A DNA stretch of 64,000 nucleotides from Candidatus Omnitrophota bacterium. Its GTDB lineage: Bacteria; Omnitrophota; Gorgyraeia; Tantalellales; Tantalellaceae. The notes under the pieces were generated by a model. The model had not been told where the DNA came from, made no database searches, and saw nothing but the letters and a program-made list of their open reading frames with translations. The stretch spans positions 11,009-75,008 of the forward strand of contig DAONGE010000005.1 of the NCBI GenBank assembly GCA_035403965.1, written 5' to 3'. Below are positions 1-44,918 of the stretch, in pieces (position 1 is the stretch's first letter; every line of letters begins with the position of its first letter). Both the position numbers and the translations under genes were made by a program.

Positions 1-487
1 AGTAGGTGAGGAATTTCTGGCATATTCTCGTTTGAATGGTTTCGTAACAAAAAACGGAGGAAGCTGTCTCTTCGATCCGGTGGATTTTATAAGAACGACT
101 TTAACGTCAAAAGGTCTTTTGCCGGACAATTTTTATGATGTAAACATATGTAGCAAGTGTGCGGTGCATAAGTTCCCGTCATATCGGCGTACCGGCGAAA
201 AGACAAGGACGCTTACTTTTATTGTTAAAAGGGCTGTTGGTTCGTTCCTGTCTCGTGGGGAATAAAAAACTAAAAATATCGGTTTTTATCGTTCTCTTAG
301 TGGTAAAATAAACAAGTTGCCAACTCAGCTTGTTTCTGAGCTCGATACATGATCCGCCGTATTATGCGTAAATATTTGACACTCAAAATTTGTTGTGATA
401 CACTTGGCGAGGTTTGGGAAAAAAGTGATATTGGGTGTATGTAAATTACGTTTAACACTGTGTTTTTTTTAAGAGGGGGGAGTGTTA

Positions 488-775
488 ATGGCGGCTAGTA
501 ACAAAAAAGGAAAATGTCCCGCATGTGGACAGAGTATCCCGGTTGAAGAAGATCTTAATATTGGCGATATGATGTATTGCCCCGAGTGTTATGCGGAACT
601 TGAGATCGTGAAAATGAAACCGGTAACGTTTAAAGAGACGGATAGCCTTAAAGAAGAAGAGGAAGACGCAGAAGATCTTGAATTCGAAGAAGATGATGAC
701 ATGATGGAAGAAGACGAGGATGACGACGGTGATGAGGGTGAGGAAGAAAGCGATGAAGACGAAGAGGATAGGTAG
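488..775 (+). CDS. LysW-like zinc-ribbon protein with long acidic C-terminal tail (amino-group carrier protein family candidate)
   Basis: N-terminal CPxCG...CPECxAELEIV zinc-ribbon pattern as in LysW/ArgW, followed by a roughly 45-aa Glu/Asp tail. RBS GAGGGGGG 7 nt upstream of ATG 488. TTGACA-N17-TACACT promoter at about 376-404. Confidence 0.5.
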   Translation: MAASNKKGKCPACGQSIPVEEDLNIGDMMYCPECYAELEIVKMKPVTFKETDSLKEEEEDAEDLEFEEDDDMMEEDEDDDGDEGEEESDEDEEDR

Positions 776-803
776 TCGCTGATTGAACCAGAGGAGGGGC
801 TTT

Positions 804-1268
804 ATGGTTAGGTCAAAGGTTATTATAAGCGGGATTGTTATGTCGGTTTTGCTTTGTTCCGGCGCGGTGATTTCGTATTCAGCGGAAGGTGTTAATACGC
901 CGCAATCTGCTCCGGCAGTTAAAGAAGCGCAAAGCGCTTCTACCGCTAAAGAAACACAGCCAGTGGTTCCTTCGGTTCCAGCCGTGGGAGATAAAACTGT
1001 TATAAAGGGTACCATAGGCGAGATAGCGGATGATAATACTTACATGGTCGTGAACGGAACTAAGATAAATACCCCTGAAGGTTTTATAGAGGATTATTTT
1101 CTTCTTAAAGGCGATGAAGTTGAAGTGACGGTTAAAAAGATTGACAAGGGGTATGAGGCGGTAGACAGTAATTTTACGTTTACTGATGAAGATATGGATA
1201 ATTCTTTTGATGAAACAGCTGATGAAAGTCCTGCGCCAAAAGGACAAAATCCCGGTGCGGAGAAATAA
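804..1268 (+). CDS. secreted hypothetical protein (signal peptide)
   Basis: ORF with RBS GAGGAGGGG before ATG 804. N-terminal hydrophobic signal sequence. No recognisable domain. Confidence 0.45.
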   Translation: MVRSKVIISGIVMSVLLCSGAVISYSAEGVNTPQSAPAVKEAQSASTAKETQPVVPSVPAVGDKTVIKGTIGEIADDNTYMVVNGTKINTPEGFIEDYFLLKGDEVEVTVKKIDKGYEAVDSNFTFTDEDMDNSFDETADESPAPKGQNPGAEK

Positions 1269-1300
1269 TATTTAAAAAGTTCTCCAGAGGTGTAAAATCG

Positions 1301-1678
1301 ATGGTGAGAAAAACCCTGTTGTTTTTAATGTGTGTTTTGGTTTTGTCGGGGTGTGGTCATCGGGAAATTGCTCTTACTGAAAAAGATGACGGTAGAAAAA
1401 TAAGAATATCCACCGGTGAAAGTATGTCCGTATCATTGGAATCGAATCCCACTACAGGGTATATTTGGGAACCTGCCGAGCTTGACGGAAAGATCTTAAA
1501 ATTCAAAAAGGGTGATTTTAAGCCTAGTTCGGATCTAGTAGGAGCTCCGGGGCGGCAGATATTTTGTTTTAAAGGAATGCTTAAAGGGAAGACAAGTCTT
1601 AAACTGATCTATCATCGCTCATGGGAAAAAAGTGTTCCTTCTGCCAAGACTTTTTCTATAACGGTGGAAGTCAGATAA
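1301..1678 (+). CDS. chagasin-family peptidase inhibitor I42 lipoprotein
   Basis: Lipoprotein signal (LVLSGCG) and the conserved NPTTGYxW motif of inhibitor I42, size about 125 aa. Confidence 0.7.
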   Translation: MVRKTLLFLMCVLVLSGCGHREIALTEKDDGRKIRISTGESMSVSLESNPTTGYIWEPAELDGKILKFKKGDFKPSSDLVGAPGRQIFCFKGMLKGKTSLKLIYHRSWEKSVPSAKTFSITVEVR

Positions 1679-1689
1679 CGTTTGTGTCC

Positions 1690-2802
1690 CTATTTAATCA
1701 GTCGCTCGATCTTTTTAGCGATCGCAAGGCTTGCCGTTAATCCTGGGGATTCTATGCCGATCAGATTTATCATATGAGGGAATCCTTTTTCACTTTCTTC
1801 GCTTATCACAAAGTCTCTGAAAGGTCCGGTTTCTGTCTGTAACTTAGGGCGGATGCCGCTTGATTCGGGTGTGATATCGGATATATCAAGAGACGGTAGA
1901 AAACGCCGGGCCGATGAAAAGAATGTTTCTGTTCGGTTTGGATCGACGGAATACTCGATGTTTCCCACATATTCTGAGTCCGGGCCAAGTCGCAGTCCTC
2001 CGGCAAGATCTGGTGTGAGATGAATGCCCAGATCGATGTCCGAAGGCGGGGGATAAACAAGTCTTGTTATGTTGAATTTCCCCGGTTTTTGTATGCGAAA
2101 ATATTGTCCTTTCGAAAAATGAAGTTTATAGCCGTATTCCTCGACATCGAGTCCCGGCATTTTGGCTATTGCGTCGGAGTAAAGGCCGGCCGCATTGATG
2201 ACCCATGTTGAGCAAAAAGAGAATGATTCGCCGTTCGGTTCTTTTACCGTTATTAAATATTCACCATCGGATCTTTTGATATCCGTAACATCGGTTCCGA
2301 AAACGAAATCTATATCTTTGGAACGGGCATAATCATGCAGAAATTTCATTAGCAAATGGGTATCTACGATGCCTGTATCCGGAATTAACAAAGTTCTTTC
2401 TGAGCGTATAGCCGGTTCCATGCTTTTCAGTTCGTTCTTTTCGATGTAGCGGACATTTTTTATGCCACAGGCAATAGCGTTTAAACGGATCTTTTCTAGT
2501 TTATCAAATTCTGAATTTTCCTGAGCTACGATAAGCTTGCCGGATTTTTTATGTGGGATTGAATGCTTTTTGCAGAGTTCATACAAAAGTTGCCTTCCTT
2601 GTATACAGGTTTCTATTTTTAGACTGCATGGAGGATAGTATATGCCGGCGTGAATGACTTCCGAATTGCGAGAGCTGGTTTCTTGTCCGAAAGACTGATG
2701 TTTTTCAATAACAAGTATGCTTTTGTCGGTTTTGCTGAGGTTGTGCGCAATGGAGAGTCCGACAACCCCGGCTCCAATTATCGTTATATCTATTTTCTCC
2801 AT
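1690..2802 (-). CDS. FAD-dependent oxidoreductase (DAO family, L-2-hydroxyglutarate oxidase-like)
   Basis: N-terminal GxGxxG FAD fold (IIGAGVVGLSIA). Overall DAO/LhgO-like sequence, 370 aa. Confidence 0.65.
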   Translation of the reverse strand: MEKIDITIIGAGVVGLSIAHNLSKTDKSILVIEKHQSFGQETSSRNSEVIHAGIYYPPCSLKIETCIQGRQLLYELCKKHSIPHKKSGKLIVAQENSEFDKLEKIRLNAIACGIKNVRYIEKNELKSMEPAIRSERTLLIPDTGIVDTHLLMKFLHDYARSKDIDFVFGTDVTDIKRSDGEYLITVKEPNGESFSFCSTWVINAAGLYSDAIAKMPGLDVEEYGYKLHFSKGQYFRIQKPGKFNITRLVYPPPSDIDLGIHLTPDLAGGLRLGPDSEYVGNIEYSVDPNRTETFFSSARRFLPSLDISDITPESSGIRPKLQTETGPFRDFVISEESEKGFPHMINLIGIESPGLTASLAIAKKIERLIK

Positions 2803-3031
2803 GGTTCATAACATATTACAGTATATTCGGTTAGAGTGCAATTTCTTTGTGATTTGATATTATTTTCGCCGTTAATGGCCTGGGATTAAACTCTGAAAGG
2901 TCTTGTCTTTTGTTGGAGATCAGAATATATTCATTGGAAATTTGCATTGTTAGGAATATTTAGATAAAATAAAGTTAGTATGTTGGTACAATTTCTTCCA
3001 ATGCAAAGGCGCACATGGGGGAGTGGTAGGA

Positions 3032-4447
3032 ATGGCTGGAAAACAGGTAAAAGAGACAATACGGGTGCTTATACTGGAAGACAATGACGTTGACAGTCGG
3101 TTGCTGAGCAATACCCTTCTCGAATCATCCCAGTATGAATATACGATCAAAGTAACAGAAACCCTCAAAGCGGCGTTGGAAGTCCTCGCTAGTGAAAGAT
3201 TTGATATAGTTTTGCTTGATCTCAACCTTTCTGACAGCAAAGGTACAGATACGGTCATGCGTATAAGCCAGGCCAAACCTGATCTACCGATCATAGTAAT
3301 AACAGGCGAATATGATGAAAGTAAGGGGATAGACGCTCTGAATAAGGGGGCGCAGGAATATCTCATTAAGGGTGGTTTTAGTGGAAAAATGCTCGATAAG
3401 GTGATACGGTATTCTGTTGAGAGAAAAAAAACCGAAAAAGTTCTTTTAGAAGAGCAACGTATCTTTTCGACTGTTGTAGGTAATCTACCCGGGATGGCAT
3501 ATCGTGCCTACAACGATACCCGTCGAACTATGGAATTTATCAGTGGTGGTAGTTTCGGTCTTACCGGATATGATCCGGAACATCTGATGAACAATACAAA
3601 GATGGCATACCGTGACATTATAAAAAAAGAGGACAGGGACCTTGTTTGGTATAGCATACAAAACGGTGTTTCCGAGCATAAAATATACAAAATGGGTTAT
3701 AGGATCAGTGCCGCGGATGGTAGAGAAAAATGGGTGTGGGAACAGGGGCAGGGAGTTTTTACGCCCGACGGAAAATTGCTTTTTCTAGAAGGTTTCATAA
3801 TGGATATCAGTGACCGGAAAAGGACCGAAAATGAGCTGGAACACACGATATCGGCTCTTGCAAAAACTTTCGAAGATATGGTGCATGCGCTGGCTTTAAC
3901 CGTAGAAATGAGGGATCCGTATACGGCAGGGCACCAAAAGAGAGTGGCGCAGTTATCGTACGCGCTCGCGAAGGAGCTGGATCTTGGAACGGAAACTGCA
4001 CAGGGGGTATATCTGGCGGGACTTGTGCATGACGTGGGAAAGATATATATCCCGGTCGAGATCCTGGGTAGTCCCCGTAAATTGAATGACGTGGAGTTTT
4101 CTATAATAAAAACTCATTCAAAGGTCGGATTTGATATTCTTAAAAACATTAAATCTCCGTGGCCGATAGCCGAGGTAGCTCTTCAGCATCATGAACGCAT
4201 AAACGGCAGTGGGTATCCGGAAGGTATATGCGGAGATACTATCTTGACCGAGTCAAAGATAGTATCGGTAGCCGATGTTGTTGAGGCGATGGCGTCTCAT
4301 AGACCATATCGTGCCGCTCTTGGAGTCGATATGGCGCTGGCGGAGATACGCCGTAACTCGGGAACATGTTTTGATCCGAAAATAGTCGATGCGTGTGAAG
4401 TGCTTTTTCGGAAAAAAAGTTTTGATTTCAGCGATCCGATCTCCTGA
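3032..4447 (+). CDS. response regulator with REC-PAS-HD-GYP domains (c-di-GMP phosphodiesterase)
   Basis: Receiver domain with phospho-acceptor Asp (ILLDLNLSD), a PAS-like middle region, and an HD-GYP domain (HxxRVA...HDVGK...HHERxNGSGYP). RBS GGGGGAG before ATG 3032. Confidence 0.8.
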   Translation: MAGKQVKETIRVLILEDNDVDSRLLSNTLLESSQYEYTIKVTETLKAALEVLASERFDIVLLDLNLSDSKGTDTVMRISQAKPDLPIIVITGEYDESKGIDALNKGAQEYLIKGGFSGKMLDKVIRYSVERKKTEKVLLEEQRIFSTVVGNLPGMAYRAYNDTRRTMEFISGGSFGLTGYDPEHLMNNTKMAYRDIIKKEDRDLVWYSIQNGVSEHKIYKMGYRISAADGREKWVWEQGQGVFTPDGKLLFLEGFIMDISDRKRTENELEHTISALAKTFEDMVHALALTVEMRDPYTAGHQKRVAQLSYALAKELDLGTETAQGVYLAGLVHDVGKIYIPVEILGSPRKLNDVEFSIIKTHSKVGFDILKNIKSPWPIAEVALQHHERINGSGYPEGICGDTILTESKIVSVADVVEAMASHRPYRAALGVDMALAEIRRNSGTCFDPKIVDACEVLFRKKSFDFSDPIS

Positions 4448-4614
4448 AGAATTTTTAAACCATATGTCCGGAGTTCCTGTCTTATCCCTGAATGATCGAT
4501 AGTAGTCCGTATGCCCTACAAATTTCGGGTTTAAAAAGACCGGGATTTGATATATAATAATGCCGTTTTTTATATGTAAGGATATTAGGACCTTTATTCT
4601 AAAAGGAGACAAAG

Positions 4615-5793
4615 ATGAGCAGGGTTTTGATAATCGGCGCAGGTGGAGTTGGCGGAGTCGTGACGCACAAATGTGCTCAGGTGCCTGAGGTGTTCAGCGA
4701 GATCATGCTTGCCAGCAGGACTCTTGAAAAATGTAAGAAAGTGGCGGCCGGAATAAAACGTCCGATAAAGACGGCTAAGGTCGATGCGGATAATCCAAAA
4801 GAAACTATAAAACTAATAAAGAGCTTTAAGCCGGACCTGGTTGTAAATGTAGCGCTTCCTTATCAGGATCTCGCGATAATGGACGCGTGTCTTGCAACAG
4901 GTGTCAATTATCTCGATACGGCTAATTATGAGCCGCGCGATGAGGCGAAATTTTGTTATAAATGGCAGTGGGCGTACAAGACTCGTTTTAAAAAAGCCGG
5001 ATTGATGGCCGTTCTGGGATGCGGGTTCGATCCGGGCGTGACGAATATTTTTTGTGCATATGCGCAAAAACATTATTTCGACGAAATCCATTCGGTGGAG
5101 ATAATGGATTGTAATGCCGGGTCGCATGGGCATCCGTTCGCTACAAATTTTAATCCGGAGATCAACATAAGGGAAATTACGCAGCGCGGTAAATACTGGG
5201 AGAACGGCAAATGGATAGAGACGGATCCTTTGTCGGTGCATGAAACATTCGATTTTCCCGAGGTTGGTCCGAAAGAAATGTATCTCATGTATCATGAGGA
5301 GCTTGAATCTCTGGTGAAAAATATAAAGGGGCTTAAAAGGATACGTTTTTGGATGACATTCGGTCAGGAATATCTGACGCATCTGAGAGTTCTCCAGAAC
5401 GTTGGTATGACACGTATCGATCCCGTTATTTATGAAGGGAAAGAAATAGTTCCTCTTCAGTTTCTTAAGGCCGTTCTGCCGGAACCCGCTTCTCTTGGCG
5501 TGAATTACAAAGGGAAAACTAACATCGGATGTATGATGGAAGGCATCAAGGACGGAAAACACCGCAAAATATATATCTACAACGTGTGTGATCACGCGGA
5601 ATGTTACAAAGAGGTTAAAGCCCAGGCGATCTCTTATACCACTGGAGTCCCCGCCATGATCGGCGCGATGATGGCCCTCAAAGGCGAGTGGAAAGGTAAA
5701 GGCGTGTATAACGTAGAAGAGTTTAACCCGGATCCTTTTATGGAAAAATTGAACAAACACGGTTTGCCGTGGGTGATTAAAGAGATAAAATGA
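4615..5793 (+). CDS. carboxynorspermidine/carboxyspermidine dehydrogenase (saccharopine dehydrogenase family)
   Basis: Rossmann N-terminus IIGAGGVGG. Saccharopine-dehydrogenase-like. Immediately upstream of nspC as in known norspermidine operons. Confidence 0.75.
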   Translation: MSRVLIIGAGGVGGVVTHKCAQVPEVFSEIMLASRTLEKCKKVAAGIKRPIKTAKVDADNPKETIKLIKSFKPDLVVNVALPYQDLAIMDACLATGVNYLDTANYEPRDEAKFCYKWQWAYKTRFKKAGLMAVLGCGFDPGVTNIFCAYAQKHYFDEIHSVEIMDCNAGSHGHPFATNFNPEINIREITQRGKYWENGKWIETDPLSVHETFDFPEVGPKEMYLMYHEELESLVKNIKGLKRIRFWMTFGQEYLTHLRVLQNVGMTRIDPVIYEGKEIVPLQFLKAVLPEPASLGVNYKGKTNIGCMMEGIKDGKHRKIYIYNVCDHAECYKEVKAQAISYTTGVPAMIGAMMALKGEWKGKGVYNVEEFNPDPFMEKLNKHGLPWVIKEIK

Positions 5794-5860
5794 TGGAATT
5801 AACGGGAAAATAGAATACGGGGAACGGATGTCCGTTCCCCGTATTTTTTAGAAAGAAAAC

Positions 5861-7015
5861 ATGAAAAATAACGTAAAAACATTCGTGAAGGATCTTGAAT
5901 ACACGCCCTGTTATGTGGTGGATGAAAGCCTTTTAAGGCGCAACCTGTCTGTGCTGAAGCATGTTCAGGAAGAAACGGGTTGCAAGATCATACTCGCACT
6001 TAAAGGGTTCGCGATGTTCAGTGTTTTTCCTGTTATCAGGGAATATTTAAAAGGCGTGACCGCAAGTTCTTTGGACGAGGCCCGCCTCGGTTTCGAGGAA
6101 TTTGGCGGGGAAGTTCACGCTTGCGCTCCCGCGTACAGAAAAGAAGAGATGAAAGAATTAATGAAGTACTGTTGTCATATTACTTTCAATTCTTTTTCGC
6201 AGTGGGAAAAATTTAAACCCGTTCTTATGTCATCGAAGAAAAAAGTGGAAGCGGGGCTAAGGATAAATCCCGAACATTCAGAAGTTAAGGTGAAAATATA
6301 TGACCCGTGCGCGTCTGGATCCCGCCTTGGTATAAAGCTAAGAGATTTTGAGAATAAAGATCTTTCCGGGATCACCGGGCTTCATTTCCATACGTTGTGT
6401 GAACTCAATTCGGATTCACTGGAGAGAACGCTGAGTGCCGTCGAAAAACGATTTGGTAGATATATAGAGTCCATGAAATGGATAAATTTTGGCGGAGGGC
6501 ATCATATAACGCGTAAAGATTACGATGTAAGGTTGCTGTGCCGGCTGATTAAAAATTTCAAGAAAAAATATAATACTGAAGTTTATCTCGAGCCCGGAGA
6601 AGCGATCGCGTTGAATACGGGTTTTCTTGTATCTGAGGTTATGGACATAGTTCATAACGAGATGGATATCGCCATACTCGATACGTCGGCCGCCGCTCAT
6701 ATGCCGGATGTCCTGGAAATGCCATATAGGCCAAAAATAATAGGAGCAGGTATTCCGGGTGAAAAAAAAATCACTTACAGGCTGGCCGGGATGACATGTC
6801 TTGCCGGTGACGTGATAGGCGATTATTCTTTTTCGCGTCGACTCAAACCCGGAGATAGACTCGTGTTCACGGATATGGCGCATTATACAATGGTCAAAAA
6901 TAATACGTTCAACGGGATACGGCTTCCGTCCATCGCCGTTTATGAGCCTGCCCCAAAACGTGTCCGCATCGTACGTAAATTTTCTTATCAGGACTACCGG
7001 AATAGATTGTCGTAA
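5861..7015 (+). CDS. nspC: carboxynorspermidine/carboxyspermidine decarboxylase
   Basis: PLP-dependent Orn/DAP decarboxylase fold with NspC-type N-terminus (YTPCYVVDE...LKHV). Paired with CANSDH. Confidence 0.8.
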   Translation: MKNNVKTFVKDLEYTPCYVVDESLLRRNLSVLKHVQEETGCKIILALKGFAMFSVFPVIREYLKGVTASSLDEARLGFEEFGGEVHACAPAYRKEEMKELMKYCCHITFNSFSQWEKFKPVLMSSKKKVEAGLRINPEHSEVKVKIYDPCASGSRLGIKLRDFENKDLSGITGLHFHTLCELNSDSLERTLSAVEKRFGRYIESMKWINFGGGHHITRKDYDVRLLCRLIKNFKKKYNTEVYLEPGEAIALNTGFLVSEVMDIVHNEMDIAILDTSAAAHMPDVLEMPYRPKIIGAGIPGEKKITYRLAGMTCLAGDVIGDYSFSRRLKPGDRLVFTDMAHYTMVKNNTFNGIRLPSIAVYEPAPKRVRIVRKFSYQDYRNRLS

Positions 7016-22826: not shown

Positions 22827-23024
22827 AGTTGTTCTTTTCCTGTCTGGTTCGTGCTGATGGTGCGAGATTTTGGCCAACACTATAAAGATGGGAGCCTAAC
22901 TTTGGCCTTCCTTAGGGATCGTCAAGAGGGCACCCACATGGTCTTTCGGGACCAAAAATCTTACACCGCCGCGGCCAGATGGGTCTTTTTAGGGGCCGGC
23001 CGAATGTCCGGCCCCTTATTGTCT
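22827..23024 (+). ncRNA. candidate roughly 200-nt non-coding RNA (identity unresolved, 6S-like or SRP-like long hairpin)
   Basis: ORF-free unit bracketed by the promoter above and a strong intrinsic terminator (GGGGCCGG-CCGAATGT-CCGGCCCC + TTATTGTC, 22993-23032). Interior folds into one long imperfect hairpin (22846-22984), including GGTGCGAGATTTTGGCC paired with GGACCAAAAATCTTACACC. Confidence 0.45.
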
Positions 23025-37886: not shown

Positions 37887-38051
37887 TTCGTCCATCTTTC
37901 CAAATCTGAATAGATTTTCTTCTAAATTCCCAAGTTAGTATTTTAAAAAGTTGACTGCTCGCTTTTTATTGGGCATACTCAATACTGACGGGCAAGATAC
38001 CTCGCCAATTAATCTGATTGAAGTTAAGTGATCATAAAAAAGGGGAGTGTT

Positions 38052-41000
38052 ATGAAAAACTTATTAAAAAAATTTAGAGCCAGCAAAGTAACAAAAACAC
38101 TTGTTCTGATGTTGAGCTTTAACGTTGCAGTTTTTGGCATTCCTTTTGATTCTGCGCATGCCATTGATCCGGCGAACCAGTCGGATTACAAAACTATCCC
38201 CCAAAGTATGTCTGGCGGGACTTCACAATTGGAAGTCGTCCGGCAAAACTCGATAAGTGAAATACAAGGCAAAGTTAACACGACTACAACCCACGATACG
38301 ACATGGAAGAAAGAAACAATAAATGCCTCGACTGGAGTTAAAACAGTTTATATATACGCATCTGAGACTGACAAATCTAAAGGACGTTATTCTACGGTTA
38401 TGACATATCGTGCCGATGGTACGTTAAGCGCGGAGACGGGATATGTATATAACACCTATAATGGGACTCTGACCAGAAAAACAGATTATGGATTGACATA
38501 TGGTACGGACGGGAAAACGTTAACTGCTGCGTCAAAATATCAATACGATGAAAATGGGAAAACAAGTGTGTACGCAAAGATCACTTACAGCGCTACTAGC
38601 GGATACTCTAATATAAAGGTAACGGAATACAAATCTGGAACTTCTCTTGCAGAAAATTATTATGAATATAAACTCGACGGAACATTTGTGAAAAGGGATT
38701 ATTATGTCTACGATGCAAACAATAAAGTGAATTGGAAAATGACAGATGCGGCGTCATCTGCTGCGTATTCGCTCTATGAATATGATGTAACGACTGGAAA
38801 AAATATAAGGGTGTATACCTTTAATAAATCAGATGGGGTGCGTACAAAAGAAACAGGATATCTCTGGTATACAAATACAACGACGGCAAAAACCTCCCAA
38901 CTTACAGCGTACAGCATAACCTATAACACGGATGGTAGTACTATAAAAACGGCGGAGTATAGAACATACAGTGAAGGCGTGCTTGTTACAAAGATTGTGG
39001 ATACTGCATCTACGAATCTAAGACAGGAATATCAATATACAGGTGGCGTACGTTTAACGCTTTACCGTACCTATACCTCGGGTGTACTTACGGCAGAAGC
39101 GGCATATACTTACGTGGCGTCGGTGAATAAGGATTTACAGACAAGGGTTTCATCATACAATAGTAGTGGGTGCATTTATAAAGAAACGTGCTATGAGTAT
39201 TATGATACCGGTAAGACGAAAACGGTTATTAAAGATACGCGATCCAATGACGGGAAAATATTGTTGTCTCGATCGATCAGTAATTATAATACTGCCGGGA
39301 CTATAGTTCTTAGCATTGAGGCATATGCATATACATCGGCAGGAGTTTTAAGCACTTATGCGTTCACACAAAATGATGAAGCCGGGAAGAAGATAACCAC
39401 CACAAAATCATATTATTCAAACGGGAAATATGTTTATAAAGAGTATACTTACGTATATTGCAGCGGGACAAACATATTAAGTACGTTGACCACGGATTCA
39501 AAAAATTCCTCCGGAGTGATTTTATCAAGATCCATAGCTACATACGACAGCACCGGGAAGATAGTTCTTACTTCTGAGGTGTTTACGTATTCTTCTGGAG
39601 TATTAACTTCTCACGTTTTGACGAATTATGATACAACAGGGAAGACGGTGGTTTTTAGCCAAACAGAGGTATACAGTAATGGAATTATACAAAGCTCCGT
39701 TATCACTCGATTAGAATCAGCAGTAAAAGAGATTTATACCTATACAGCGGGAGTCCTGACAAGTATGACGCAGTATAACTTAGCCGGTACCGTTCTGCAA
39801 CAAATGACTGTGTACTTACGAATAAACGGTTTAGATAAGGTTACAGATATAACATGTTATGATACAAATGGGAACGTTGTGGGAAAGACGGATTATGATT
39901 ATTATGATTCGGCTGTAGCAAAAACACAAGCGACGTATGATTTTACCAATTTAACATATAGCTATGTATCGTATGCTGAAGATGGGACTATTCTCAAAAA
40001 TGTTTCTAATGCCATAGCGCTTTCGGAATGGAACGCTACTAAGTCTGATATAAGCACATTGGGTTTTAACGGGTATTTGAAGAACGGTGAAGTCGGCTGG
40101 TATACAAATCAGTCTGGATATGTGAAACAATATATAAAAGTTTTAGCCGATGGTGTTTATCAGGTTAGTTTTCGCGCCGAAGGTGTGGCTTTGGATGGAG
40201 TATATCCTCTTATTTCGGTGAGTGTTGATGGGCTTGGGGTGGAGATAGCAAATGTTAATAGTTCAGAACCAGGGCTGTATACGGTAACATTAAATCTTGC
40301 AGAAGGAATACATTCTGTTGGGCTTGATTTTGTGAATGCCACTGCAAAACAGACAGATCCGTCAGGCGCGTCCGAATATTTATGGCGGAGTGTTACGATA
40401 GGAGACATTTCCATAGACAATACGGTGGCGGGGGCGATGCCTGTGATCCTATGCGAAGATTCGGAGTGGGAAGAATATGAGTCTGCTAAGGAGGAAGAAG
40501 TACTTGCAGAGGCAGAAGAGAATATCGTCGCTTCGAAAACGGACGCTACCGTGACTATAGTTGACGAGTCGGGAAATGTCATAGAGGGGGCTCAGGTGAC
40601 GATTGAAGAAACAGAGTCGGATTTCGTATTTGGGACAAACTATATGTGGATAGAAAAATTTGATACTTTTGAGGAAAATTTAGAATACAACCTGGCCTTG
40701 ATCGATGAAATAGCGGCTATATCCAATCAGGCTACGGTTCCGTTATTTTGGAGCTTTCTGGCGCCGCAAGCTGTTTTGGATGGAGATGGCAATGTACAAG
40801 ATATCAGTTTATCCACGGATGCTATTGCTTCTTTAGATCTTCAGCTTGGATTATTAGCACAAAAGGGAATAACAGATATTAATGGTGCGACTCTGGTCTG
40901 GGAGAACAGTGATTTTATGCCGCAGACTTGGTTGGCTGGACTTTCTAATGAGCAGAAAAAAATGGCATTAAAATTATATATACAGAAAATTATAAAGATG

Positions 41001-43622
41001 TATTCAAATAAAACGGTAAGTACGATTAATATTGTAACTGGAGAATGGACAACATGTGATGTTTCCATCAATACGTGGGAAGTTGTGGGCGAACCATACT
41101 ATTTAGATTGTTTTAGCGAATTATGGCCAGATGCAACAAAAGAAACGGTGATAAAGGAAATGTATGATTGGGCGGATGAGGCACGAGCCCAAACAGGGAA
41201 CCCAAACATAAAACTTATGCTTAATGATTATATTTTTCTGGTGGATGGAAATTTACCCTGTTACGACTCATTGAAGAAGTTGGTTGATGCTGGTGTTAAA
41301 TTTGATATTCTCGGGATACAGGCTCACCATTTGATTGATGGGATGGCCGGGTACGATGTCCCATATAATTTAAGTGAACTTAGTTCAATCTTGGATAGAT
41401 ATGCATCGCTGGGGAAAACTATGTATATAACAGAATTTGAGATGCCGAGTAATAATAATGAAATCGTAGGTTCTGTATGGAGAGGGACCAATTGGGATGA
41501 AACGACACGGTCCCAGTATGTTAAGGATTTTTATACTTTGCTGTTTTCTCATCCTGCAATTGCGGGTATTTCATATTGGGACATGGTAGATGTGGCGGGA
41601 CAAGTGCAATATATCCCTTATTCTGGGCTGATCAACGCGGATCTGACTGTTAAAAAAACATACATGGATCTTAAAGATCTGATTAACAATCAATGGAAAA
41701 CAAAAATCGAACAAGCTATTACTGATGAGAACGGACAATATTCGTTTAGAGGTTTTGGTGGTACCTATAAAATATCTGTGGAGGTTGGCAGTGGAAAGAT
41801 GGTTTTTTACAAAGATTTGACTAGAGATCAGTTGAATGATTTGACACTTGTTGTATCAACCGTGCCGGCAGAGACACTATCTTGGATACCATCGAGCCCA
41901 AGTGTATATACTGAAGGTCAAGGTTTTTGGGTATCCGCGGCATATCAATTGGGTTTTGAAGGATATGCTTTGACTGGCCCCGGAGAGGTTGGTGACTATT
42001 TTGCGGTATCAGCAGGGAATTATTGTATTACGGTCACTGCAAGTGGTAGCCCGGCATATGGTGAATACCCCGAGGTTTTGGTTAAAGTGGACGGTATCTA
42101 TGTGAAATCGGCAGTAGTTCAAACAGTGTCTTTGGCCTCATTTACTAATATATCTGTTAATGTGGAATTGACGGAGGGTGTGCATGAAATTGCAGTTGAA
42201 TTTATTAATGATGGCTATGATGCGTCGACAGGGAACGATAGAAATCTTTTAGTTAACAGCATAAAAATAGATCCTACTTCTACTATTGGACAGACAACTC
42301 CAGTTTTAAGTAATAAAGCGGCGTGGATTGCGGCAGAAGCGGCGCGAGAGACCGAAATAATCGAAGAAGCGGAAGCGACTATCGAGGCTACAAGGAAATC
42401 AGATGCGGTTATTACGGTCGTGGATGAATCGGGTAATGTGATTGAAGGAGCGACGGTTACGATCAATCAGACCAGCAGTGATTTTCTCTTTGGTGCGAAT
42501 TTTGCGCTGGATGGGAGTAAAGACCTACAATATAACATTAACCTGCTGTTAACATATGAAGGTTTGTTCAACTATGTGACTATCGGCTGCTTTTGGGAAG
42601 AATTGGAGCCGACAGCGGATGTGCCTAATTGTGATTCTGCGAATTATAAATATTTCGAAATGCTTTTAGGCCTTGCTACGCAGATGGGAATGAAAATTAA
42701 AGCGTCGACTATTTTATGGGGCCAGGATGATCCAGGATTGCCGTCATGGGTATCGGCGCTTTCCGAGGCTGGTCAAATCGCGGCGATAGAAGAACATGTC
42801 CGTAAATTGGTTTCAACGTACAAAGAAAAGACTGTAACAACTTATGATCTGGAAGAGCTTAAGAAGGGTAATTGGGTCGAAAAATCCGTGACAGTGGAAA
42901 TTGATGATTGGGAGGTTGTAAATGAACCTTTTCACTATACGGGTGAATATGATCTCCAGGATGTCTATGCGATAGCTAAAGAGGCAAATCCGGACGCCAA
43001 CTTGATTATCAATGATTATAGCTGTTTTGAGGATGGAGCCGAAGAAGTATATGAAGGATATGAAGATGCGATAAATGATGGCGTCAGTTTTGACTCAATA
43101 GGATTACAGGCGCATCATTTGACCAATACTGCATTCCGGCTTTCTCAGCTTGAAACAGTCCTTGAAAAATATGCCGCACTAGGGAAGTCGTTGTATTTAA
43201 CAGAGTTTGAAGCGGAAACTACGGGAGAGGCGGTTCAAGGTGCGACATGGCGCGGTACCTGGACAAACGAAATGCAGGCAAAATATATAGCGGATTTTTA
43301 TAAGGTTATGTTCGCGAGCTCGGCGATCGCCGGTATAACTTATTGGGATATCATTGACAACGCGAGTTCAACATGGTGTCCGTACGGAGGGTTGCTTAAT
43401 GAGGATCTCACTGCGAAAGCATCTTATACCGTGCTTAAGGATCTGATATTGAATCAATGGCGGACTAATATTGATAACGCAGTGACAAATTCGGCCGGGC
43501 AGTATGCATTCAGGGGCTTTACTGGGACATATGAAGTGACCGTTACGGTTAACGGAGTTTCTAAGACATATGCCTGTAATGTCGCTGACGGGGATGCAAA
43601 TAATATGAAGTTGGTATTTTAA
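38052..43622 (+). CDS. giant secreted multidomain glycoside hydrolase-like protein (Thr/Tyr-rich repeat region plus two CBM-like/GH-A (GH10-like) modules)
   Basis: Signal peptide. About 600 aa of Tyr/Thr-rich degenerate repeats (…TYxYDxxGK…, YD-like). Then two paralogous modules, each a beta-sandwich CBM-like segment, an acidic linker (EEAEENIVASKTDATVTIVDESGNVIEGAQVTI / EEAEATIEATRKSDAVITVVDESGNVIEGATVTI) and a TIM-barrel glycosidase-like domain with WEVV(G/N)EP acid/base-type and (I/L)TEFE nucleophile-type motifs. Confidence 0.65.
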   Translation: MKNLLKKFRASKVTKTLVLMLSFNVAVFGIPFDSAHAIDPANQSDYKTIPQSMSGGTSQLEVVRQNSISEIQGKVNTTTTHDTTWKKETINASTGVKTVYIYASETDKSKGRYSTVMTYRADGTLSAETGYVYNTYNGTLTRKTDYGLTYGTDGKTLTAASKYQYDENGKTSVYAKITYSATSGYSNIKVTEYKSGTSLAENYYEYKLDGTFVKRDYYVYDANNKVNWKMTDAASSAAYSLYEYDVTTGKNIRVYTFNKSDGVRTKETGYLWYTNTTTAKTSQLTAYSITYNTDGSTIKTAEYRTYSEGVLVTKIVDTASTNLRQEYQYTGGVRLTLYRTYTSGVLTAEAAYTYVASVNKDLQTRVSSYNSSGCIYKETCYEYYDTGKTKTVIKDTRSNDGKILLSRSISNYNTAGTIVLSIEAYAYTSAGVLSTYAFTQNDEAGKKITTTKSYYSNGKYVYKEYTYVYCSGTNILSTLTTDSKNSSGVILSRSIATYDSTGKIVLTSEVFTYSSGVLTSHVLTNYDTTGKTVVFSQTEVYSNGIIQSSVITRLESAVKEIYTYTAGVLTSMTQYNLAGTVLQQMTVYLRINGLDKVTDITCYDTNGNVVGKTDYDYYDSAVAKTQATYDFTNLTYSYVSYAEDGTILKNVSNAIALSEWNATKSDISTLGFNGYLKNGEVGWYTNQSGYVKQYIKVLADGVYQVSFRAEGVALDGVYPLISVSVDGLGVEIANVNSSEPGLYTVTLNLAEGIHSVGLDFVNATAKQTDPSGASEYLWRSVTIGDISIDNTVAGAMPVILCEDSEWEEYESAKEEEVLAEAEENIVASKTDATVTIVDESGNVIEGAQVTIEETESDFVFGTNYMWIEKFDTFEENLEYNLALIDEIAAISNQATVPLFWSFLAPQAVLDGDGNVQDISLSTDAIASLDLQLGLLAQKGITDINGATLVWENSDFMPQTWLAGLSNEQKKMALKLYIQKIIKMYSNKTVSTINIVTGEWTTCDVSINTWEVVGEPYYLDCFSELWPDATKETVIKEMYDWADEARAQTGNPNIKLMLNDYIFLVDGNLPCYDSLKKLVDAGVKFDILGIQAHHLIDGMAGYDVPYNLSELSSILDRYASLGKTMYITEFEMPSNNNEIVGSVWRGTNWDETTRSQYVKDFYTLLFSHPAIAGISYWDMVDVAGQVQYIPYSGLINADLTVKKTYMDLKDLINNQWKTKIEQAITDENGQYSFRGFGGTYKISVEVGSGKMVFYKDLTRDQLNDLTLVVSTVPAETLSWIPSSPSVYTEGQGFWVSAAYQLGFEGYALTGPGEVGDYFAVSAGNYCITVTASGSPAYGEYPEVLVKVDGIYVKSAVVQTVSLASFTNISVNVELTEGVHEIAVEFINDGYDASTGNDRNLLVNSIKIDPTSTIGQTTPVLSNKAAWIAAEAARETEIIEEAEATIEATRKSDAVITVVDESGNVIEGATVTINQTSSDFLFGANFALDGSKDLQYNINLLLTYEGLFNYVTIGCFWEELEPTADVPNCDSANYKYFEMLLGLATQMGMKIKASTILWGQDDPGLPSWVSALSEAGQIAAIEEHVRKLVSTYKEKTVTTYDLEELKKGNWVEKSVTVEIDDWEVVNEPFHYTGEYDLQDVYAIAKEANPDANLIINDYSCFEDGAEEVYEGYEDAINDGVSFDSIGLQAHHLTNTAFRLSQLETVLEKYAALGKSLYLTEFEAETTGEAVQGATWRGTWTNEMQAKYIADFYKVMFASSAIAGITYWDIIDNASSTWCPYGGLLNEDLTAKASYTVLKDLILNQWRTNIDNAVTNSAGQYAFRGFTGTYEVTVTVNGVSKTYACNVADGDANNMKLVF

Positions 43623-43668: not shown

Positions 43669-43702
43669 TCGTGGGGCGTGTAGGGGCGCCCCACGTTTTT
43701 TT
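43669..43702 (+). terminator. intrinsic terminator after the giant gene
   Basis: CGTGGGGCG-TGTAGGG-GCGCCCCACG 9-bp GC stem followed by TTTTTTT. Confidence 0.8.
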
Positions 43703-43795
43703 AGTAATATGTAATATAACGAAAAAATACTTTTCAAAATGGGACCTTGTAGTATAATAAAAACGCTCGATTTTTGATAATCAGGTATATTTCGC

Positions 43796-43869
43796 TGGGA
43801 GATGGTGTAACGGTAACACTGATGACTCTGGATCATCCGTTCTTGGTTCGAATCCAAGTCTCCCAGCCA
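43796..43869 (+). tRNA. tRNA-Gln (CTG)
   Basis: U1-A72 acceptor (TGGGAGA/TCTCCCA). Anticodon stem GATGA/TCATC with loop CTCTGGA. T-arm CTTGG-TTCGAAT-CCAAG. Discriminator G and encoded CCA, as in E. coli tRNA-Gln. Confidence 0.85.
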
Positions 43870-44410
43870 TAAAAATCTTTGACAGAAATGTGACGTGGGA
43901 TTTTTATGGGTTCGAAGGCGATGCCTTCGAACCTGAAACTTCCTCGGTTTTTCGTGAAAATGAATTTTCCCGAAAAACCTCGTCAGTTTCAGCTGGGAGT
44001 CTTGGGCTTCTCGCGCGCGTGGCGCGCTCGTCGTCCAAGTTTTCCAGCCAAAATATTTGACAGAGATCAAAATGGTATTTTGGTGAAAAGGGCTTCGCCC
44101 TTTTCTGTGCAAACTCGTCGATTTTTTGAAAGAATGAATTCTTTAAAAAGATCTCCTCGTTTGCACCTGGGAGCCTTGGGCTCCTCGCGCGCGTGGCGCG
44201 CTCGGTGTCCAAGTTTTTCAGCCAAAAAATCTTTGACAGAAATGTGACGTGGGATTTTTATGGGTTCGAAGGCGATGCCTTCGAACCTGAAACTTCCTCG
44301 GTTTTTCGTGAAAATGAATTTTCCCGAAAAACCTCGTCAGTTTCAGCTGTGAGCCTTGGGCAGCTCGCCTTCGGCTCGCTGTCCAAGTTTTTCAGCATAA
44401 TATTTGGAAG
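43870..44410 (+). repeat. tandem array of three roughly 176-bp units (A, B, A') immediately 3' of tRNA-Gln. Each has a TTGACA -35 element, conserved hairpins and a 3' end mimicking the tRNA-Gln acceptor/T-arm (…CCAAGTTTTCCAGCCA)
   Basis: Unit starts (TTGACA) at 43879, 44057 and 44233. Units A and A' are nearly identical for about 150 nt. Unit B has a different middle but the same architecture. Each has a perfect 11-bp hairpin (GGTTCGAAGGC-GAT-GCCTTCGAACC, or GAAAAGGGC-TTC-GCCCTTTTC in B), a long AT-rich hairpin, and a GC hairpin flanked by CTTGG/CCAAG and a T-run. Confidence 0.8.
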
Positions 44411-44439
44411 AGATACAATATTATATTTTGATGTTTGTA

Positions 44440-44533
44440 GGCGTAACGGAGATGAAGTCCTCCGGCTTGTTGTAAGCGAACTGCCCTAAAGGGCTGATGA
44501 CCTCTACCAATTGGGTAGAGGTTTTTTTATTTT
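44440..44533 (+). ncRNA. fluoride riboswitch (crcB motif) with terminator expression platform
   Basis: GGAGAUGAAGUCCUCC…CUGCCCUAAAGGGCUGAUGACCUCUAC closely matches the crcB-motif core (compare GGCGAUGAGGCCCGCC…CUGCCCUGAAAAGGGCUGAUGGCCUCUAC). The 3' CCTCTACC is shared with the terminator stem CCTCTACC-AATT-GGGTAGAGG + T7. crcB lies immediately downstream. The inter-helix linker is atypically long (17 nt). Confidence 0.75.
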
Positions 44534-44543
44534 AGGAGGTAAA

Positions 44544-44918
44544 ATGGGAAAAATAATGAGTCTTTTTATCGGAGGAACTATTGGCACGTTTGCCAGATAC
44601 TTTCTTTCCACATATATCCACTCTGTTGTAGGGGTTGGATTTCCGTACGGCACGTTTGTGGTTAATATTATAGGGTGTTTTATTATTGGGTTTATTGCCG
44701 CGTTTGCCGACAATAAAATCTTGTTTGATAGTAACCTTAGACTTCTTTTGATGGTGGGTTTCTGCGGGGCATTTACCACATTTTCAAGTTTTATTTTTGA
44801 GACTTCAGGACTTTTGCGGGAGGGAGAATCAGTAAAGGCCTTTTTGAACATAATAAGCAGTGTGACTGTCGGTTTTATTGTTTTCAGAATAGGTGCTGTC
44901 TTAGGTAAACTTATATAA
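44544..44918 (+). CDS. crcB: fluoride ion channel CrcB/Fluc
   Basis: 125-aa four-TM protein with CrcB-like motifs (…GTFxxN…GxxTFSSF…). Preceded by the fluoride riboswitch. RBS AGGAGG. Confidence 0.85.
   Translation: MGKIMSLFIGGTIGTFARYFLSTYIHSVVGVGFPYGTFVVNIIGCFIIGFIAAFADNKILFDSNLRLLLMVGFCGAFTTFSSFIFETSGLLREGESVKAFLNIISSVTVGFIVFRIGAVLGKLI

Follow-up and report, generated by a model that had tools for sequence, protein, structure and literature searches.

A secreted Omnitrophota protein with two CBM60-like/GH10 cassettes behind a Tyr/Thr-rich repeat sheet, probably an endo-xylanase

A 64,000-nucleotide stretch of contig DAONGE010000005.1 from a Candidatus Omnitrophota bacterium, hereafter called the window, carries at positions 38052..43622 of the + strand a single gene for a long secreted protein. 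Considering all the results below, we think that this protein is probably a Sec-exported, multimodular, retaining beta-glycanase of glycoside hydrolase family 10 (GH10), and most likely an endo-beta-1,4-xylanase, with its catalytic modules placed behind an N-terminal repeat sheet. The enzyme part is already publicly annotated and belongs to a known family, as an identical protein is held in GenBank (HPS19792.1) under the name 'endo-1,4-beta-xylanase [Candidatus Omnitrophota bacterium]'. This name also agrees with the first-pass annotation, made from the letters of the DNA alone, which had guessed at a lineage known for giant proteins. The same annotation had described a secreted product of 1,857 amino acids; the open reading frame (ORF) and its signal peptide are real, and the count included the stop codon, the protein itself having 1,856 residues. 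Such a length, which had been called unusual, is not unusual for a multimodular carbohydrate-active enzyme. The only non-routine features are the orphan repeats, a Gly in the active site of the first catalytic copy, and an Ala or Ser in the active sites of both copies.

Both catalytic barrels passed the cut-off of 22.1 bits for Glyco_hydro_10 (PF00331), copy 1 scoring 70.1 bits and copy 2 106.2 bits, and Pfam reported no other glycoside hydrolase family in either copy, even at E <= 5. A search of the PDB gave 86 matches at E <= 1, and among the 60 matches listed almost all were GH10 xylanases. The best solved relative was AcXyn10A from Acetivibrio clariflavus (8b73; E 1e-27), with an alignment spanning residues 1034-1245 of copy 1 and 1451-1718 of copy 2. 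These results placed in GH10 the barrels that had been called GH10-like on the strength of their motifs. Neither outcome that would have overturned the first-pass annotation by its own account was seen, these being an assignment of the barrels to something other than a glycosidase family and a characterized adhesin family that matches the N-terminal region and accounts for the whole architecture. NCBIfam gave no match above its cut-offs for the whole protein.

The catalytic half of the protein is duplicated. Residues 641-1253 and 1254-1856 aligned with 35% identity over 587 amino acids (pairwise alignment, E 7e-104), and the catalytic parts of the two copies were 41% identical; the duplication proposed earlier at roughly 40% identity is thus real, with an overall value somewhat lower than that proposed. 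Each copy is a cassette made of a module resembling carbohydrate-binding module (CBM) family 60, a conserved helix-like segment, and a GH10 barrel set inside a split beta-sandwich like CarboxypepD_reg. In copy 1, the CBM60-like module covers residues ~670-792 (40059..40427, +), the Glu-rich helix-like segment residues 803-828 (40458..40535, +), and the GH10 module residues 829-1268 (40536..41855, +), where the barrel (~859-1214) lies between an N-terminal part (829-858) and a C-terminal part (1215-1268) of the sandwich. In copy 2, the CBM60 module covers residues ~1290-1412 (41919..42287, +), the helix-like segment residues 1421-1447 (42312..42392, +), delimited by alignment to copy 1 and to relatives, and the GH10 module residues 1448-1856 (42393..43619, +).

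The sandwich was recognized through CarboxypepD_reg (PF13620), which scored 38.6 bits for the whole protein (cut-off 32.3) and 36 bits for copy 2. The profile was split in both cassettes: ahead of each barrel, the VTIVDESGNVIEG strands matched its positions 4-32, and behind the barrel the 'QWKT...GTYKISVEV' segment matched positions 29-77. Therefore, the segments before and after the barrel are halves of one small beta-sandwich, an arrangement also seen in 8b73, whose alignment runs through both of them, and the first-pass annotation, which had listed a 'VTIVDESG...' strand segment and a 'QWKTKIE...' domain as separate elements, has to be revised here. Its 'acidic linker' did not survive either. 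The Glu-rich segment, of ~27 amino acids with hydrophobic spacing, precedes an R/K-x-D-A strand in both copies, and an equivalent segment occurs in four relatives introduced below (P0007, the upstream gene of contig L002, L052 and P0008); it is therefore not a low-complexity spacer, and is probably an amphipathic helix belonging to the cassette. The CBM-like module proposed at first was recovered as CBM60 (PF16841): copy 2 scored 58.6 bits, above the cut-off of 28.2, whereas copy 1, at 19.3 bits, fell below it; copy 1 of this module aligned to copy 2 and to the equivalent module of the relatives. No solved CBM60 or CBM36 chain was matched by phmmer, either with copy 2 or with a profile built from five modules, and the best PDB match of these queries was an Fn3-like module (3pe9, E 0.003).

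The nearest relatives were found on a Logan contig (L002; SRR30949874, positions 2-6739) as two adjacent genes, both encoding Y/T-rich repeats, a CBM-like module, the helix segment and a GH10 barrel. The upstream gene is 52% identical to barrel 1 and the downstream gene, P0007, is 43% identical to it. Two separate genes on L002, compared with one fused two-cassette gene in the window, suggest an expansion of the family in this lineage. The same order of CBM60 and then GH10 recurred in two dockerin-bearing proteins (P0010 and P0011) and on an environmental contig (L052). A scan of species-representative genomes showed no close relative, the nearest being a Victivallales metagenome-assembled genome with 29% identity, and a first scan of metagenomes for related loci gave no match.

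To evaluate the active sites, both barrels were aligned with 46 subfamily relatives (alignment A4, 48 sequences). The motifs quoted in the first-pass annotation were present as stated, namely WEVVGEP (G1013, E1014) and ITEFE (E1128) in copy 1, and WEVVNEP (N1624, E1625) and LTEFE (E1718) in copy 2. In copy 1, the codons 41088..41093 (+) encode the acid/base Glu and, before it, the Gly that takes the position of the Asn of clan GH-A, and the codon 41433..41435 (+) encodes E1128, the predicted nucleophile. The nucleophile Glu was present in 47 of the 48 sequences and the acid/base Glu in 46, both copies being included each time, and both barrels have the Q-x-H motif. Two relatives, P0008 (WDALQQP) and P0018 (WEITEQN), have lost the acid/base Glu and kept the nucleophile Glu; they may be GH10-like proteins that are non-catalytic or have an altered mechanism.

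The Asn before the acid/base Glu was found in 44 of the 48 sequences, with copy 1 as the sole Gly and the other exceptions being P0007 (Ser), P0008 (QQ) and P0018 (EQ). It was also kept in all 11 further environmental relatives and in the upstream gene of L002. In GH10, a hydrogen bond links this Asn to the C2-OH of the sugar in subsite -1, and that bond is seen as a stabilizer of the transition state; conservation of the Asn-Glu pair is high throughout clan GH-A (PMC8056907). Reduced or altered activity would therefore be expected of barrel 1, which we predict to be slower or to have an altered specificity, while barrel 2 looks competent except for a His, discussed below, that both barrels lack.

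Barrel 1 could be further gone than this, as a catalytically crippled paralogue serving mainly as an extra lectin-like binding module while barrel 2 does the cutting. The replacement of an Asn that contacts the C2-OH (PMC8056907), by a residue found once among the 48 sequences and never in the 11 environmental relatives or the upstream gene of L002, points in this direction, and the loss of the acid/base Glu in P0008 and P0018 indicates that the subfamily does yield non-catalytic forms. However, barrel 1 keeps both catalytic Glu residues, the Q-x-H motif and its Trp residues, and its closest relative without the Asn, P0007, keeps both Glu residues as well. At the conserved columns, copy 1 and copy 2 departed from the subfamily consensus in a similar number of places, so copy 1 is no more divergent than copy 2 and does not resemble a decaying pseudo-enzyme. 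In addition, when Ser, Cys or Thr was put in the position of the Asn in GH10 variants engineered on an E128H background, some activity on an activated substrate was left (PMC8056907). We thus consider a crippled barrel 1 rather unlikely, although it is the likeliest of the alternatives.

Xylan is the likely substrate, judging from the family membership and from the characterized members of the subfamily. Several points weigh against our reading of the protein as a xylanase behind a repeat sheet. Its identity to characterized GH10 enzymes is only ~25-30%. Barrel 1 is without the Asn found in 44/48 sequences, and the His of the G-H-x-L-x-W motif, a subsite -1 residue present in 39 of 47 sequences, is missing in both barrels, where Ala946 (copy 1) and Ser1552 (copy 2) occupy its position; P0007 has Lys and P0009 has Ala there. 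The membership in CBM60 comes from Pfam alone. Only one of five structure models of a repeat fragment, described below, was confident, and the template modelling (TM) scores of the repeat model stayed below 0.4 for every structural match. Finally, no genes for xylose utilization or oligosaccharide import were seen in the 64-kb window.

Some of these points would also fit a GH10 fold that acts on another substrate, the protein being a secreted or surface-displayed glycanase of an epibiotic or predatory Omnitrophota cell directed against the envelope or exopolysaccharide of its host or prey, with the repeats as an adhesion filament. Omnitrophota have been described as host-dependent nanobacteria, and their large extracellular proteins have been proposed to degrade polysaccharides on the surface of target cells (PMC10066038; bioRxiv 10.1101/2023.11.21.568195; bioRxiv 10.64898/2026.06.07.730766). 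We found no mention of xylan in these three papers, which discuss extracellular glycoside hydrolases only for attack on other cells. Antiparallel beta-helices resembling Rhs, reported in giant proteins of the phylum (bioRxiv 10.1101/2023.11.21.568195), the diverged subsite -1, both barrels having lost the His and barrel 1 the Asn as well, and the missing xylan-utilization context in the 64 kb are all consistent with such a role. In contrast, GH10 and CBM60 are overwhelmingly xylan-associated families, the characterized members of the subfamily are xylanases (PMC12485897), the nearest relatives of the cassette carry dockerins, which suggests a plant-cell-wall context, and no adhesin or cell-anchor domain was detected in the protein. 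Taken together, we regard this alternative as unlikely. An Omnitrophota GH10 clade appears to be formed by P0007, P0009, the upstream L002 gene and the two barrels of the window, and the His is lost throughout it. It is tempting to imagine that the clade has a remodelled subsite -1 for something other than plain beta-1,4-xylan, such as a C2-substituted or non-xylose glycan on the surface of another cell, and that the 14-residue sheet described below is a new kind of adhesion filament by which a nanobacterial cell would present the enzymes to its host, but this is a speculation that we would not expect to prove right.

The region in front of the cassettes, residues ~81-645 (~565 amino acids; 38292..39986, +), consists of Tyr/Thr-rich beta-hairpin repeats, with roughly 38 units of a strand and a turn, as judged from periodicity, AlphaFold2 (AF2) models and Foldseek comparison. 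The first-pass annotation had described about 600 residues of degenerate Y/T-rich repeats, and the composition and periodicity bear this out. Residues 40-640 contain 16.6% Thr, 11.5% Tyr and 10.5% Ser, and 34 of 231 pairs of 50-residue segments scored above the 99th percentile of composition-matched shuffles, where ~2 were expected. The autocorrelation of Gly had peaks at lags of 14 (z 6.2) and 28 (z 3.1) residues, and Tyr was followed by Gly at lag 4 (Y-x-x-x-G, z 5.7). When cut at the turns, the region gave ~30 units of the form x8-Y-[DNST]-x-x-G-[KTV], mostly 12-16 residues apart, with a period of 14. All ten matches to Y[DNSTG]xxG[KTV..] in the protein fell within the first 645 residues. 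BLASTP of the region against itself gave only the identity match, and a 14-residue hidden Markov model recovered only 16 units, with weak scores.

The likeness to YD/RHS repeats suggested at first fits the motif and the structural matches, but Pfam found no family in residues 40-640 even at E <= 5, RHS_repeat (PF05593) included. The full Y-x-Y-D-x-x-G-[RK]-[LIV] motif did not occur. A word-indexed search of 5.8 billion proteins found no homologue of the repeat region, and an exhaustive search of 1.84 billion representatives returned only the protein itself and one weak match, P0002 (E 7.9e-4), which itself passes RHS_repeat in Pfam with 27.4 bits. A phmmer search of the PDB with the N-terminal region gave only chance matches to major histocompatibility complex chains, with E at least 0.2. 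Among the relatives, the upstream L002 gene had a Y-x-x-x-G signal of its own (z 5.6) in its N-terminal region, which aligned weakly to the window repeats (26% identity over 404 positions, pairwise E 7e-8). Modelled by AF2 without an alignment, the whole N-terminal region had a mean predicted local distance difference test score (pLDDT) of 43. In one of five models, the fragment of residues 80-300 reached a pLDDT of 81.9 and a predicted TM-score (pTM) of 0.64, and formed 16 consecutive strands of 7-12 residues in a beta-meander. Foldseek against the PDB placed Rhs effectors first (7q97, 8qjc, Tse5, Tse15), followed by teneurin-2, Tc toxins, SGS1 and the single-layer sheet of OspA, with porin-like proteins and LptD lower down. 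The matches to Rhs, teneurin and Tc proteins had E values from 1.8e-5 to 1e-3, with TM-scores below 0.25 and root-mean-square deviations above 16 A; with TM-scores below 0.4 throughout, the fold similarity is therefore local.

The region is very unlikely to form either an encapsulating shell of the genuine Rhs type or, like inverse autotransporters, a beta-barrel anchoring the protein in the outer membrane, even though Rhs, teneurin and Tc toxins led the Foldseek matches, porin-like proteins and LptD followed, and the only sequence match, P0002, passes RHS_repeat, since the region itself does not match RHS_repeat, its period is 14 residues instead of ~20, its TM-scores are low, the DPxG[LWIV] motif (DPxGL of the Rhs core) is absent from the whole protein, CBM and GH10 modules rather than a toxin domain follow downstream, Pfam found no inverse-autotransporter barrel, and the strands are polar on both faces (mean Kyte-Doolittle value 0.22 on the more hydrophobic face; grand average of hydropathy -0.50), which argues against a lipid-facing barrel. 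The Rhs cocoon was rejected for its missing core motif and toxin domain, and the membrane barrel for the polar strands and the missing Pfam match. We concluded that the repeat region is a YD-like, solvent-exposed sheet of beta-hairpins that is new at the level of sequence and belongs to a known structural class. It may act as an extended stalk or an adhesive surface that spaces or tethers the enzymes.

Returning to the xylanase reading, a plausible model for the action of the protein can be proposed. Removal of the signal peptide would leave a mature protein made of the ~565-residue repeat sheet and the two cassettes, and we infer that it is exported beyond the periplasm. The CBM60-type module of each cassette would hold the polysaccharide, and the GH10 (beta/alpha)8 barrel, of the AcXyn10A type, would cleave it by double displacement with the putative catalytic pairs E1014/E1128 in barrel 1 and E1625/E1718 in barrel 2. 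At the Gly-Glu of barrel 1, the hydrogen bond from Asn to the 2-OH of the sugar in subsite -1 would be lost. The N-terminal sheet, of the YD/Rhs or the single-layer kind, might space or tether the enzymes.

The gene itself carries signals for expression and export. The ORF list offered two possible starts, GTG 38028 and ATG 38052, for the long + strand frame ending at 43622. ATG 38052 is almost certainly the functional start, because a Shine-Dalgarno sequence, AAGGGGAG (38040..38047, +), lies 4 nucleotides before it and both the JGI and the NCBI gene calls give 1,856 amino acids from this codon; GTG 38028 was rejected, as the position of the Shine-Dalgarno sequence favors the ATG. A promoter-like TTGACT-17-CATACT (37951..37979, +) matched the consensus weakly, at 9 of 12 positions, and matches of such strength were no commoner here than in shuffled sequence, so it provides no evidence of function. 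Downstream, an intrinsic terminator (43670..43705, +) consists of a 10-bp stem with 8 G-C pairs (43670-43695) and a T-run; with this strong terminator after it, the gene looks monocistronic. Residues 1-37 (38052..38162, +), read from the sequence, have a Lys-rich n-region, a hydrophobic core and an AHA followed by ID, with cleavage predicted after AHA; they contain no Cys, and hence no lipobox Cys, and are predicted to be a classical Sec signal peptide of the signal peptidase I (SPI) type. The G+C minimum of the whole window (0.387, against 0.41-0.49 elsewhere) lies at 38001-40000 and coincides with the Thr/Tyr/Lys/Asn-rich repeat region; the amino-acid composition probably explains it, and a foreign origin is not needed.

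Other copies of the gene were also observed. A JGI contig of 239 kb (L001) holds a copy that differs only by a compensated local frameshift, changing QTTPV to TDNSS at window positions 42290-42304 (residues 1414-1418), in the spacer between the CBM of copy 2 and the helix segment. P0004, P0005 and P0006, which fall into one 90% cluster, represent the same gene in another assembly, on an 11.9-kb contig where it was called as two pieces of 927 and 948/957 amino acids. The split is due to a frameshift inside barrel 1, after 'FWSFL', near residue 904 (~40760 of the window), which may come from an indel made in sequencing or assembly, or mark an allele that is really disrupted.

The neighbors of the gene are housekeeping genes, including gltX, glnS, the pyruvate:ferredoxin oxidoreductase (PFOR) subunits, dxs, xseAB, tRNA-Gln, crcB and lpxD, with glycogen genes further away. 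The window also contains a 6S RNA (22834-22989, 60.4 bits), a tRNA-Gln(CTG) (43796-43869) and a fluoride riboswitch (44439-44513, 48.6 bits) directly upstream of crcB (ORF 44511-44918) and a DUF190 gene. Between the tRNA and the riboswitch, three tandem units of ~175-180 nucleotides were observed at 43871-44400 (+). Unit 1 shares 97% identity with unit 3 over 144 nucleotides and ~78% with unit 2, and each unit opens with a box like TTGACA-N17-TTTTAT. One unit folded into three consecutive hairpins with a minimum free energy of -74 kcal/mol (z -7.97), 14 of 68 predicted pairs, compared between the three units, kept their pairing through changes on both sides, and the G-U pairs favored the + strand. 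The units matched no Rfam family and had no further copies in the window; two ORFs without Pfam matches that were called over them (L001 15855-16439) are probably spurious. The units may be a structured small-RNA array or a structured repeat element.

The importance of these results is modest: they place a secreted two-barrel enzyme with GH10 and CBM60 modules in Omnitrophota. Should it prove to be a true xylanase, some Omnitrophota would have a direct part in the breakdown of plant polymers. Otherwise, the barrels would belong to a GH10 clade whose active site has changed, as the natural Asn-to-Gly replacement and the absent His indicate. The sheet with a 14-residue period, an orphan in sequence, is a candidate for a new repeat family, with a role that is guesswork.

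Among known systems, the partial model of the N-terminal region most resembles, though only locally, OspA and the Rhs/YD sheets of T6SS RhsA (7Q97), Tse5, Tse15, teneurin and TcB-TcC. The latter were the top Foldseek matches for both models, and the region appears to share with them a turn of the Y-D-x-x-G type and extended series of Tyr- and Thr-rich antiparallel beta-hairpins. It differs from them in having 14 residues per strand against ~20 residues per hairpin, in the missing RHS_repeat match, Rhs core and enclosed toxin, in its global shape (TM-scores below 0.25), and in its fusion to glycoside hydrolases instead of a toxin. OspA offered the highest TM-scores among the matches (0.3-0.39) and is also a polar, solvent-exposed beta-meander, but it has few hairpins, set between two globular domains, and shares no sequence similarity with the window repeats. 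Giant proteins of Omnitrophota contain Rhs-like antiparallel beta-helix regions (bioRxiv 10.1101/2023.11.21.568195). As far as their description allows a comparison, these are alike in phylum, in being extracellular and in consisting of unannotated antiparallel beta-repeats likened to Rhs, and they differ in their regularly spaced exterior alpha-helices and in the size of the proteins, above 30,000 amino acids.

For the enzyme part, AcXyn10A (8B73) and Fsa02490Xyn from Fervidibacter sacchari share with each window cassette the N-terminal strands, the barrel and the C-terminal beta domain, as well as the catalytic Glu pair, the Q-x-H motif and an F-N-x-x-T...F/Y-W motif. This last motif replaces the canonical GH10 motif E-N-x-x-K-W. 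Both enzymes are single-module proteins of ~400-430 amino acids, whereas the window protein has two barrels, each with a CBM60-like module and a helix-like segment, and these barrels are without the His of G-H-x-L-x-W and, in barrel 1, the Asn. By its description, AcXyn10A is an endo-beta-1,4-xylanase; the related Fsa02490Xyn, which acted as an endoxylanase in experiments, has a separate C-terminal beta structure of 58 residues (PMC12485897). The metagenomic proteins P0010 and P0011 come closest to the cassette as a whole, with the same order of CBM60, split sandwich and GH10 and a GH10 identity of 33-35%. In them, Ig-like domains and a dockerin come after a single cassette; the window protein, in contrast, carries no dockerin and combines two cassettes with ~565 residues of N-terminal repeats.

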